64,000 nucleotides of DNA from Shigella phage MK-13: the sequence record MK509462; one strand, given 5' to 3'. Position 1 is the stretch's first letter; each line of letters begins with the position of its first letter. Below, one piece after another: positions 22,896 to 25,086 of this stretch. Made by a program: the position numbers and the translations under genes. A model generated the notes under the pieces. The model had not been told where the DNA came from. It saw nothing but the letters and a program-made list of their open reading frames with translations, and did no database searches.

Positions 22896-25086
22896 TATTG
22901 AATATGCCCCGATAAAGACGGGATTCAAGATTGATGATGTCAGATTGCGTATGGACCAGACGTTCATGCGCAAGCCGTCTGTGCGTGCTCCTCGTGTAGA
23001 GTTGATGTTGACCGACGATCAAGAATCGGAGTTCGTTGAGTGCGCAATGGACGCTCATTACTTCGCCGCCAACTACTACAAGATCACGACCATCGATAAG
23101 GGCTTCATCCTCTTCGATATGCATGATTATCAGAAGCAGCTGTTCCATGACTTCCAGGATCACCGCTTCAACGCCGTGGTTCAGGCGCGTCAGTCTGGTA
23201 AGTGTGTGAAGGGTGACAGCATCGTCGAGGTTTACGATACGTTCAGCCAAGAAGAGTTTAAAGTCACCATCGAGGAGCTTCACAGCCGCTTCGAGGGACC
23301 AAATCACGCCGAGCCACTGAATGCCTTTGGCAAACACGATAAGTTCGTAGACAGCCGCTTCGGCAAGCGTTATTTTGTTCGCTGTGACAAAGGCTGGGTG
23401 CCTATCATCGCCGCGCACAAGACCAAGCCGTACCAAGAGTACGTTGTCATCACTTCCAGTGGTCGTCGTATCAACGTGGCCGATGATCACATGTTCTTCA
23501 ATCAGAACATGAAGGAAGTGTTTGCTAAAGATCTGGTTGCTGGTTCACGGCTAATGACCGAAGAAGGTCTAGAAGAAGTCGTTGAGGTATGGCAGACTGG
23601 TGAGGTGCATCACATGTTTGACCTACAGGTGAAATCTAGTGATCAGCGCTACTACACCAACGGCTTCCTCAGCCACAACACGACAGTCGTAGCAGCGTTC
23701 CTGCTCTGGTATGCGATGTTCCACTCTGACAAAGAGATCGCGGTACTGGCGAACAAAGAGAAGCAGGCGATTGAAATCCTAGACCGTATCCGCAAGGCAT
23801 ACCAGGATTTGCCATTCTTCCTCCAACAGGGTTGCGAGAAGTTCGGCTCCACGCTCATCGAGTTCGAAAACGGGTCGAAGATCTACGCCTATGCGACATC
23901 CTCTGACTCCATCCGTGGTCGATCTGTATCTCTTCTGTATGTAGACGAAGTGGCGTTCATTGAAAACGACTTTGAATTCTGGGAGTCTACATTCCCGGCG
24001 ATTGCATCTGCAGATACATCACGTTGTATCCTGACCAGTACGCCGAAAGGTCAGCGCGGGTTGTTCTACGACATCGTCACCAAGGCGAACCCAGAACACC
24101 CTCAGTACAACGACTTCAAACTCACAGAGGTTCCATGGTATCGTGTTCCAACATACACCAAGGATCCGAACTGGGAATCCAAACAGAGGGCGAAGCTGGG
24201 CGATGCACGTTTCGATCAGGAATTCGGTATCAAGTTCCGTGGTTCTGTAGGATCACTGATACCTGCCAAGTGTCTAGACAAGATGACCTCGAAACTCTAT
24301 CAGGAGCCGAACGAGTTCACCAAGATCTACCACGATTACGATCCGAAGCGCATCTACATGGGTATCGCCGATACAGGCAAAGGTGTGGAGGGGGATTACT
24401 CTGTTCTGACCATCTTGGACATCACAGACTATCCTCACAAGATTGCGGCCAAGTATCGGAACAACACGATACCTCCAATGATGTATGCATACACTATCGC
24501 CGACATGGGCGAGAAATATGGCACGTGTCCGATGTTGGTTGAAACCAACAACGACGTGGGCGGCCAGGTAATCACAATTCTATATCAGGAAATTGAATAC
24601 CCGGAGATCATCTTCACTACCACAGATGCGAAGGGTACTGGCAAACGAATTGGTGGCCGCCGCCCTGAGCCTGGCATCAACACGAACAAGAAAGTGCGTT
24701 CGAATGGTTGTGCTAACCTCAAGGCGCTTATCGAACGTGAGATGCTGGTGGTTGATGACCAAGACACGATAGATGAACTCAGTACATTCGTATGGACTGG
24801 GACAAGGTATGAAGCCGATGATGGTTGTCATGATGACTGTGTGATGCCTCTCGTGCTCTATGCATGGGCGGTGAAACAAGAATGGTTTAGTGATCTCACA
24901 AACTCAAGTATCTCTGTGGACATGAGAGGAAGATTATCTGCGATGGAAGAATCTCAGATGTTACCTTTCGGGGGTGTGCTTTCAACACCAGATCCTCACT
25001 CTATAGAGAGTATCCCAGGGTTTGGTGGAGTTCAGGTGTATGACGAACGCTCTGGCATGTCCATGGAAGAATGGCTGAGACGGTGA
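22876..25086 (+). CDS. terminase large subunit (T4 gp17-like), interrupted by a mini-intein in the P-loop
   Basis: QARQSGK...[intein]...TTVVAAFLLWYAMF reconstitutes the T4 gp17 Walker A SRQLGKTTVVAIFLAHF; downstream ATPase and nuclease regions colinear with gp17. Start at ATG 22876 (GAAGGTGA RBS). Confidence 0.85.
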   Translation: MAYQKRDIEYAPIKTGFKIDDVRLRMDQTFMRKPSVRAPRVELMLTDDQESEFVECAMDAHYFAANYYKITTIDKGFILFDMHDYQKQLFHDFQDHRFNAVVQARQSGKCVKGDSIVEVYDTFSQEEFKVTIEELHSRFEGPNHAEPLNAFGKHDKFVDSRFGKRYFVRCDKGWVPIIAAHKTKPYQEYVVITSSGRRINVADDHMFFNQNMKEVFAKDLVAGSRLMTEEGLEEVVEVWQTGEVHHMFDLQVKSSDQRYYTNGFLSHNTTVVAAFLLWYAMFHSDKEIAVLANKEKQAIEILDRIRKAYQDLPFFLQQGCEKFGSTLIEFENGSKIYAYATSSDSIRGRSVSLLYVDEVAFIENDFEFWESTFPAIASADTSRCILTSTPKGQRGLFYDIVTKANPEHPQYNDFKLTEVPWYRVPTYTKDPNWESKQRAKLGDARFDQEFGIKFRGSVGSLIPAKCLDKMTSKLYQEPNEFTKIYHDYDPKRIYMGIADTGKGVEGDYSVLTILDITDYPHKIAAKYRNNTIPPMMYAYTIADMGEKYGTCPMLVETNNDVGGQVITILYQEIEYPEIIFTTTDAKGTGKRIGGRRPEPGINTNKKVRSNGCANLKALIEREMLVVDDQDTIDELSTFVWTGTRYEADDGCHDDCVMPLVLYAWAVKQEWFSDLTNSSISVDMRGRLSAMEESQMLPFGGVLSTPDPHSIESIPGFGGVQVYDERSGMSMEEWLRR
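23203..23679 (+). mobile_element. mini-intein (159 aa, no homing-endonuclease domain evident) inserted after Lys of the terminase Walker A motif
   Basis: Begins with Cys (TGT 23203..23205) directly after SGK; block A CVKGDSIVEV; block B-like GRRINVADDHMFF; C-terminal HMFDLQVKSSDQRYYTNGFLSHN ending His-Asn (23674..23679) followed by +1 Thr (ACG 23680..23682). Confidence 0.8.

Follow-up and report, generated by a model that had tools for sequence, protein, structure and literature searches.

The large terminase (TerL) of Shigella phage MK-13 is encoded with 159 residues between the lysine and the threonine of its Walker A P-loop, which raises the question of what this insert is and what becomes of it in the mature protein. 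We analyzed a window of 64,000 nucleotides of MK-13 DNA (sequence record MK509462; one strand, 5' to 3'), which belongs to an Agtrevirus (Ackermannviridae) and is 99% identical to Salmonella phage P46FS4 and Shigella phage Ag3. An original prediction, made from the DNA alone, held that the insert is a class 1 intein lacking a homing endonuclease. We conclude with high confidence that 23203..23679 is a canonical class 1 mini-intein in an Agtrevirus TerL, at the Walker A Lys/Thr site (a slash marks the splice junction throughout), and we infer splicing itself from the features described below.

Results

The insert interrupts the P-loop of a gp17-type terminase

The gene and its parts are as follows:

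22876..25086, + strand: TerL precursor gene, gp17-like, 736 aa plus stop (ORF list; Pfam; 99% nucleotide identity to the annotated TerL of P46FS4 and Ag3)
22876..23202, + strand: N-extein, 109 aa, whose C-terminal ...VVQARQSGK supplies the first half of the Walker A P-loop (translation; alignment to T4 gp17 ...SRQLGK)
23203..23679, + strand: class 1 mini-intein, 159 aa/477 nt, 18.5 kDa, without endonuclease domain (Pfam PF14890; AF2 and Foldseek; annotated 477-nt counterparts)
23680..25086, + strand: C-extein, 468 aa plus stop, the remaining ATPase domain and the RNase H-like nuclease domain (Pfam; T4 gp17 alignment)

By its sequence, the host protein is a T4 gp17-type large terminase (Terminase_6), as had been proposed, with a predicted N-terminal Walker A ATPase and C-terminal RNase H-like nuclease. 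Pfam matched Terminase_6N (E=4e-17, precursor residues 272-463) and Terminase_6C (E=3e-6, residues 501-658), TerL scored above the cut-offs of both PF03237 and PF17289, and structures of T4 gp17 were its best PDB matches. The surrounding gene order is gp16-gp17-gp18, with TerS overlapping the start of TerL and gp18 following directly after it. The frame is also open from a GTG at 22867, which would lengthen the product from 736 to 739 aa; the equivalent of the ATG at 22876 is the annotated TerL start in relatives. Counted from this ATG the intein comprises residues 110..268, which are residues 113..271 in GTG-start numbering.

We found that the insert lies, to the base, where it had been placed. 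It keeps the TerL reading frame and separates the Walker A Lys (AAG, 23200-23202) from the Walker A Thr, and its last two codons, CAC AAC (23674-23679), encode His-Asn. Excising it in silico gave a 577-aa TerL in which Walker A RQSGKTT is restored. This spliced sequence aligned to T4 gp17 (PDB 3EZK/3CPE) with E=3.6e-71 over residues 29-517, and the P-loops ('vvqarqsgkttvvaafllwyamf' in spliced TerL, 'cnlsrqlgkttvvaiflahfvcf' in T4 gp17) aligned without a gap, bearing out the claim that removal of the insert restores the gp17 P-loop. The calculated masses of spliced TerL (66.1-66.4 kDa) and intein (18.5 kDa) agree with the ~66-kDa product and ~18-kDa intein that had been anticipated; the precursor would have ~84.5 kDa.

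Homologues were gathered with the full precursor as query, the intein alone having given just two protein matches. Intein-free TerL relatives, 73-85% identical, carry an uninterrupted RQSGK/TTVVAAF; the junction, RQSGK followed by TTVVAAFLLWYAMF, is intact. In one such homologue, P0015 (84.4% identical over 576 aa, with one gap), the contig is syntenic (gp15-gp16-gp17-gp18) and the blastn alignment runs contiguously through the junction. Its absence from close homologues shows that the insert is no regular loop of the terminase. We also considered the insert as a compositional anomaly and rejected this; its GC content is 50.1% versus 49.7% in the extein, and this near equality gives no sign of a recent foreign origin.

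The insert is modeled as a HINT fold without room for an endonuclease

Profile searches against Hint-domain models, which the original prediction had suggested, were positive in part. Pfam Intein_splicing (PF14890) matched the insert with E=1.2e-7, but its 32.1 bits fall below the gathering cut-off of 35.8, and the NCBIfam models were likewise sub-threshold (TIGR01445, 15.3 versus 24.5 bits; TIGR01443, 10.7 versus 15.6), so that all curated cut-offs were missed. Several orthologues of the window intein have a precomputed PF14890 match, and the PDB sequence matches of the insert were inteins exclusively. In the nearest relatives, Ag3 and P46FS4, the gene is labelled only 'terminase large subunit', and we think that the intein is un-annotated there probably because it scores below every curated profile cut-off.

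The AlphaFold (AF2) model of the insert had a pLDDT of 95.9 and a pTM of 0.88, with 147 of the 159 residues at a pLDDT of at least 90. When this model was compared with the PDB by Foldseek, all 50 of the 50 listed matches were inteins or a bacterial intein-like HINT domain, among them VidaL (E=2.3e-11), the Mxe GyrA branched intermediate, NpuDnaB, and the TFIIB Mvu mini-intein (TMq 0.83). The Pfam and Foldseek E values place the likeness to inteins far beyond chance. Judged by its model, the insert adopts the HINT fold. No endonuclease family was found in the insert by Pfam at E<=1, its 159 aa leave no room for an endonuclease domain, and the model matches solved mini-inteins with TM 0.60-0.83. 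We conclude that the insert is a mini-intein, and the claim that it lacks a homing endonuclease stands.

The residues of class 1 splicing are invariant

The positions predicted to take part in splicing are as follows:

23203..23205, + strand: Cys1 codon TGT, block A nucleophile (invariant in 25/25 aligned inteins and every filled site)
23479..23490, + strand: block B A93-D94-D95-H96, the TxxH equivalent, with Ala replacing Thr (A93, D94, and H96 invariant in the 25-intein alignment)
23620..23622, + strand: block F aspartate D140, in MFDLQV (invariant in the 25-intein alignment)
23671..23679, + strand: block G S157-H158-N159, penultimate His and terminal Asn (invariant in the 25-intein alignment)
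23680..23682, + strand: Thr+1 codon ACG, predicted nucleophile of the C-extein and Walker A Thr, GK-T (sequence; T4 gp17 SRQLGK-T alignment)

We aligned 25 same-site homologues, 30-81% identical to the window intein, and found C1, H96, D140, H158, and N159 unchanged across them; SHN/TT occurs in all same-site inteins. Of the splicing blocks that had been named from the DNA, the N-terminal Cys, the His-Asn end, and Thr+1 held up, while the TxxH-like block did so in its His alone: the block reads A-D-D-H, the His is invariant, and position 93 is an invariant Ala (A-D-x-H) in the window intein's family, in place of the consensus Thr. His96 aligns with the block B His of the CatC and gp41-1 inteins (SDNH/SEEH). 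Thr at this block B position belongs to the intein consensus but is not strictly required, and the Ala is evidently tolerated here because it is invariant in the family. The intein contains no WCT triplet, and block F carries Asp. Since Cys1 is present and invariant, and the block F Asp comes without WCT, this is not a class 2 or class 3 intein; together with the HINT-fold model, the invariant class 1 catalytic residues uphold the class 1 assignment.

These positions suggest the following course. Translation would first yield the ~84.5-kDa precursor with its ATP-binding loop broken. An N-S acyl shift at Cys1, assisted by block B His96, would form a thioester, which Thr+1, the Walker A Thr itself, would attack. 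Cyclization of Asn159, aided by His158 and Asp140, would free the 18.5-kDa intein, and an O-N shift would then leave a native peptide bond and a 66-kDa TerL with RQSGKTT. ATP binding and DNA packaging would be possible only after splicing, and DNA packaging can reasonably be expected to depend on it, as the original prediction had it.

The insert could instead be a degenerate HINT-derived domain that no longer splices and persists within mature TerL as an insertion domain. Such a domain would fit the Pfam and NCBIfam intein scores under the curated cut-offs and the replacement of the block B Thr by Ala. However, the residues for all four splicing steps are invariant even in ~30%-identical homologues, the insert parts a Walker A Lys and Thr that sit side by side in T4 gp17 and the intein-free relatives, and precise empty-site alleles exist in close relatives. 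A P-loop NTPase whose Walker A Lys and Thr stood 159 residues apart could not bind nucleotide. We regard a non-splicing domain as highly improbable. For Ackermannviridae TerL inteins, the searchable literature yielded annotation-level statements only and no experiment on splicing.

The intein is widespread and under purifying selection

About 277 phage records, all lytic Ackermannviridae, carry the intein at full length and at least 60% identity; among cultured enterobacterial Ackermannviridae, these ~277 records compare with ~275-285 that have a closely related TerL. Such lytic phages presumably need a working terminase. The dN/dS of the intein is 0.06-0.13, and thus the intein is under purifying selection.

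This distribution bears on whether the intein splices but is kept as a conditional switch rather than as a purely selfish remnant, with splicing gated by redox state, temperature, or a signal from phage or host, so as to time activation of the packaging motor. Its presence in essentially every cultured enterobacterial Ackermannviridae record despite having no endonuclease, and the purifying selection on it, are consistent with such a role, and regulatory P-loop inteins have been proposed (PMC5050341). However, any intein at an essential site should show purifying selection, because a splicing-dead mutant kills the phage; the intein-free relatives are evidently viable lineages; and we saw no sequence feature linked to regulation, such as a Cys pair for a disulfide trap, the only other Cys of the intein, C61, being unconserved and Ser or Thr in most homologues. 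We consider retention as a switch improbable. Hardly more probable, in our estimate, is the wider proposal that this endonuclease-less intein, fixed in all cultured enterobacterial Ackermannviridae and under purifying selection but with a history decoupled from its host gene, is either actively maintained as a post-translational packaging-motor switch or spreads in trans by free-standing endonucleases like F-LimIX, which adjoin TerL in some genera. Collaborative homing has so far been described mainly for group I introns, and spread in trans, if true, would be 'collaborative homing' of an intein.

The histories of intein and extein are partly decoupled

It is reasonable to read the intein as the mark of a past homing event, as first suggested, with its own endonuclease later lost or never present. 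The sequence comparisons further suggest that the history of the intein is partly decoupled from that of its extein. Between Mooltan and Cba120, amino acid identity is 99% in the extein and 79% in the intein. Synonymous divergence of intein versus extein is 0.60 versus 0.32 between the window and CAU_YEP3, and 0.24 versus 0.41 between the window and EspM4VN, with non-overlapping bootstrap intervals for differences in both directions. In the extein tree, which is a neighbor-joining tree without support values, intein-free lineages are interspersed among intein-bearing ones.

These observations would fit an intein that, with no endonuclease of its own, still moves between Ackermannviridae infecting the same cell, whether through general recombination or through co-conversion by a free-standing endonuclease adjacent to TerL (F-LimIX in Limestonevirus), and a MobE-like endonuclease gene does lie between TerS and TerL in JA15 and CAU_YEP3. 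Against this, the comparisons cover just 159 codons, with several pairs near saturation, and no endonuclease gene adjoins TerL in the window; nor is a free-standing one annotated within ±12 kb of TerL in the 99%-identical P46FS4. We hold continuing mobility to be possible but somewhat doubtful.

Endonuclease domains were also sought in related inteins. A GIY-YIG candidate within the inteins of Vibrio phages, taken from precomputed Pfam lists of homologues, was rejected; in P0080 it lies at residues 506-589, past the ATPase domain and outside the intein. Two metagenomic same-site inteins (P0082 and P0114) are longer, at 443-451 aa, and an endonuclease domain in them would have favored descent from an ancestor that had one; no Pfam domain was found in them, and their extra segment is compositionally biased.

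Discussion

For the window, the chief value of this analysis is a point of annotation. Because the nearest relatives give the gene a single label, its annotation should list two products, the 577-aa mature TerL and the 159-aa intein, and terminase phylogenies and predictions of packaging type should take the spliced TerL sequence. The locus adds one further case to the documented preference of inteins for the Lys/Thr of P-loop ATPases. The intein could have a modest practical use as a compact splicing module, predicted to tolerate Thr+1. As the lytic phages that bear it are numerous and easily cultured, it could also aid the study of how inteins that have no endonuclease persist and recombine.

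The intein is already known from sister phages, having been published for Maynard and Marshall (2013) and Magnus (2019). One of the two proteins matched by the intein alone is labelled 'intein [Salmonella phage Maynard/Marshall]', and in Mooltan and Magnus the same 477-nt feature, with the same boundaries, is annotated as a mat_peptide 'intein'. The TerL inteins of Maynard, Marshall, and Mooltan (Kuttervirus) and of Magnus (Taipeivirus) are orthologous to that of the window, with the same gene, Lys/Thr site, and length of 159 aa. These Kuttervirus and Taipeivirus inteins, reported in genome announcements, have 72-75% amino acid identity to the window intein; unlike them, the window has the Aglimvirinae allele, 94-95% identical to the Limestonevirus and EspM4VN inteins. 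Given publication in sister phages and a textbook insertion site, we regard this as an ordinary case.

More distant inteins of gp17-type terminases occupy the same site in Campylobacter phages CPt10/CP21, Delftia phage PhiW-14, Vibrio phages VP-1 and VmeM-32, and many metagenomic TerLs. They are 27-43% identical to the window intein and 150-183 aa long (except for the two longer metagenomic inteins above), and share with it the GK/C...SHN/TT junction and a strongly conserved block F/G, MYDLQVxSxDHRYYTNGILSHN. The solved mini-inteins VidaL (6VGV), gp41-1 (6QAZ), TFIIB Mvu (5O9I), Npu DnaB (4O1R), and Mxe GyrA (4OZ6) share the HINT horseshoe (TM 0.66-0.83) at 14-22% sequence identity and come from unrelated host proteins; solved mini-inteins have Thr or Ser in block B, whereas the window intein's family has Ala.

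A further parallel by position is the mycobacteriophage intein TerL1-a (Kelley et al. 2016), which, like the window intein, lies between the invariant Walker A Lys and the nucleophilic Thr, a 'classic' insertion site in the terminase P-loop (PMC5050341). Both the active site and pentamer assembly have been argued to require splicing of TerL1-a, and TerL1-b and TerL1-c, at two other sites, bear active endonuclease domains (PMC5050341). Efficient splicing in a reporter has been seen for other TerL inteins, those tested including none at Lys/Thr (TerL1-a) (PMC5050341). The host of TerL1-a is a Terminase_1 of phages of Actinobacteria, whereas the window TerL is a T4-type Terminase_6.

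Results

An intein interrupts the P-loop of the large terminase

The window contains a T4-like late-gene block (ORF list), in which the large terminase (TerL) gene and its insert were placed as follows:

22188..22895, gp16-like small terminase (TerS), from the ORF list
22867/22876..25086, long TerL ORF with Pfam domains Terminase_6N and Terminase_6C
23200-23205, Lys-Cys codons (AAG TGT), read in the sequence
23674-23682, His-Asn-Thr codons (CAC AAC ACG), read in the sequence
25106..27034, gp18 tail sheath, from the ORF list

The codons at both ends delimit an in-frame insert of 477 nt (159 aa) at 23203..23679, and both these codons and the translation agree exactly with the position given in the original prediction of a mini-intein. 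Counted from the ATG at 22876, the start used in the annotation of relatives, TerL has 736 aa; the residues 113..271 first assigned to the insert were numbered from an upstream GTG. The precursor has a calculated mass of 84.5 kDa, spliced TerL one of 66.1 kDa, and the insert one of 18.5 kDa. The ORF is also open from GTG 22867, and the ATG at 22876 is preceded by AAGGTG. TerS runs 20-29 nt into TerL, ending at 22895, and this overlap suggests translational coupling. On the minus strand, a 260-aa antisense ORF (22708..23490) spans the TerS end and the N-extein and reaches 60% of the way into the intein; it is annotated in no relative and shows no sign of being a gene.

We found that TerL with the 159 residues taken out aligns with the T4 gp17 structures 3EZK and 3CPE (E=3.6e-71) gap-free through the junction (window arqsgkttvvaafllwyamf, T4 gp17 srqlgkttvvaiflahfvcf), so that excision does restore the gp17 P-loop, as had been proposed. 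A search with the precursor recovered full-length relatives that bear the insert (735-738 aa, 70-92% identity) and relatives that lack it (575-581 aa, 73-85% local-alignment identity). In every intein-free protein RQSGK is followed directly by TTVVAAFLLWYAMF, the same as the spliced junction of the window, and the insert is thus not a normal loop of all homologues. One of these intein-free terminases, P0015, aligned with the in-silico spliced TerL at 84.4% identity (576 residues, one gap); the blastn alignment of its gene is unbroken over the junction (GGTAAG|ACx), and its contig has the window's gene order, gp15-gp16-gp17-gp18. Another, P0016, lies on 118-kb contigs with full gp13…gp23 synteny. 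Intein-free lineages are interspersed with intein-bearing ones in a neighbour-joining extein tree, which is without support values and indicative only.

The insert alone matched the Pfam Intein_splicing profile with E=1.2e-7, although its 32.1 bits fall slightly below the gathering score of 35.8 bits, and it also scores under the cut-offs of the NCBIfam models for intein N and C termini. It is thus under every curated cut-off in Pfam and NCBIfam, and this is probably the reason that the intein is left unannotated in most records, those of the closest relatives of the window among them. Its sequence matches in the PDB are inteins only (CatC consensus, PabCDC21-1, gp41-1, VidaL, PolB16, and Mxe GyrA). 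We aligned the insert with 24 inserts, 30-81% identical to it, taken from the same site of homologous terminases. Every sequence in the alignment has C1, the block B residues A93-D94-x-H96, D140 in block F, and S157-H158-N159 in block G; all class 1 catalytic residues are among the invariant columns. The predicted N-terminal Cys and C-terminal His-Asn therefore hold throughout the alignment; of the predicted TxxH-like block the His is invariant, but the Thr is replaced by an invariant Ala, the sole departure from consensus. An AlphaFold2 model built from this alignment is almost all-β (pLDDT 95.9, pTM 0.88), and among the Foldseek matches listed against the PDB, 50 of 50 are inteins or a bacterial intein-like HINT domain (VidaL, E=2.3e-11; TFIIB Mvu mini-intein, TM 0.83). 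The 159 aa leave too little space for an endonuclease domain, and profiles gave no evidence of one, in keeping with the original claim. We conclude that the insert is a mini-intein: the initial observation is confirmed, and its interpretation is supported.

Intein and extein have partly separate histories

The Kuttervirus phages Mooltan and Cba120 have exteins that are 99% identical and inteins that are 79% identical, and nucleotide identity between their terminase loci drops from ~90% to 56-80% across the intein:

2501-2977 of each locus, intein in Mooltan and in Cba120

Synonymous divergence differed in both directions, with non-overlapping bootstrap intervals: between the window and Yersinia phage CAU_YEP3 it is higher in the intein (0.60) than in the extein (0.32), and between the window and EspM4VN it is lower (0.24 versus 0.41). 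The histories of intein and extein are partly decoupled, and these differences suggest that co-infecting phages have exchanged the intein segment by recombination. Kuttervirus records hold two discrete classes of intein allele, 71.7% and 74.8% identical to that of the window.

In two relatives TerS and TerL are separated by a free-standing MobE-like homing endonuclease gene with a NUMOD3 motif (F-LimIX), ~320 nt upstream of the site at which the intein is inserted:

1309-2187 of the terminase locus L004, F-LimIX in Dickeya phage JA15 (Limestonevirus)
1309-2187 of the terminase locus L005, F-LimIX in Yersinia phage CAU_YEP3

In the window no gene of this type occurs between TerS and TerL, which overlap (22188..22895/22876).

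Other terminases in the homologue set carry further insertions. The TerL of Vibrio phage VP-1 (P0080, 738 aa) has an in-frame GIY-YIG endonuclease domain (residues 506-589) after the ATPase domain, as do the Vibrio-phage-like ORFs P0102, P0052, and P0072. No Terminase_6C nuclease domain was detected in these four, and an endonuclease gene seems to have disrupted their TerL gene; the P-loop intein is present in P0080, P0052, and P0072 and absent from P0102. In two metagenomic TerLs, P0082 (983 aa) and P0114 (1010 aa), the intein at the P-loop site is 443 and 451 aa long, respectively. Its blocks A and B are set apart by ~280 additional residues that are R/S/Q/N/K-rich and have no Pfam match; this segment may stem from reading through a nested element that is non-coding or frame-shifted, and not be a genuine endonuclease domain. 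P0050 (838 aa) and P0098 (970 aa) combine a P-loop intein of 150 or 175 aa with more large ATPase-domain insertions. P0098 has a SegE-like GIY-YIG match at residues 373-449. Metagenomic gp17-type terminases can thus carry several mobile insertions together.

Discussion

From standard class 1 chemistry and the residues found in the alignment, we propose the following mechanism. The precursor would be unable to form a P-loop because 159 residues part Lys from Thr. Splicing would begin with an N-S acyl shift at Cys1, assisted by His96, followed by trans-esterification by Thr+1, which is the Walker A Thr itself; Asn159 would then cyclise with help from His158 and Asp140, and an O-N shift would remake the peptide bond. 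A dN/dS of 0.06-0.13 (extein, 0.03-0.11) indicates that the intein is under purifying selection, which supports this mechanism; such selection is to be expected if a phage that fails to splice dies. The mean dN of the intein is twice that of the extein. Our literature search found no experimental test of the Ackermannviridae TerL intein family. It is a speculative and improbable idea that an intein without an endonuclease is retained because it serves as a switch in regulation, or that adjoining free-standing endonucleases move it in trans.

The element is widespread. The TerL gene of the window is 99% identical to those of Salmonella phage P46FS4 and Shigella phage Ag3 (Ackermannviridae, Agtrevirus), and tblastn with the intein returned ~277 phage records with a full-length intein at 60% identity or more (Kuttervirus, Taipeivirus, Limestonevirus, Agtrevirus, and Miltonvirus). 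The N-terminal half of spliced TerL returned ~275-285 records of comparable relatedness; all seven matches listed at 90% identity or more were in two pieces, and the nearest one-piece, intein-free isolates among the matches listed were Vibrio phages (~59% identity).

The TerL intein of the window is an already known element. Salmonella phage Mooltan and Klebsiella phage Magnus carry a 477-nt mat_peptide named "intein" with the same boundaries, and for Salmonella phages Maynard and Marshall NCBI holds a separate protein of that name. The genome announcement for Maynard states the TerL intein explicitly, as do those for Marshall (PMC3853055) and Magnus (PMC6763660). Terminases are among the common intein targets (Novikova et al., PMC4760082). 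Kelley et al. (PMC5050341), who call the Lys|Thr position of the terminase P-loop the "classic" one, showed reporter splicing for terminase inteins inserted elsewhere. Given this prior annotation and literature, the finding is correct yet not new; the decoupled histories, the adjoining endonuclease, and the sub-cut-off scores are small additions to the published annotations.
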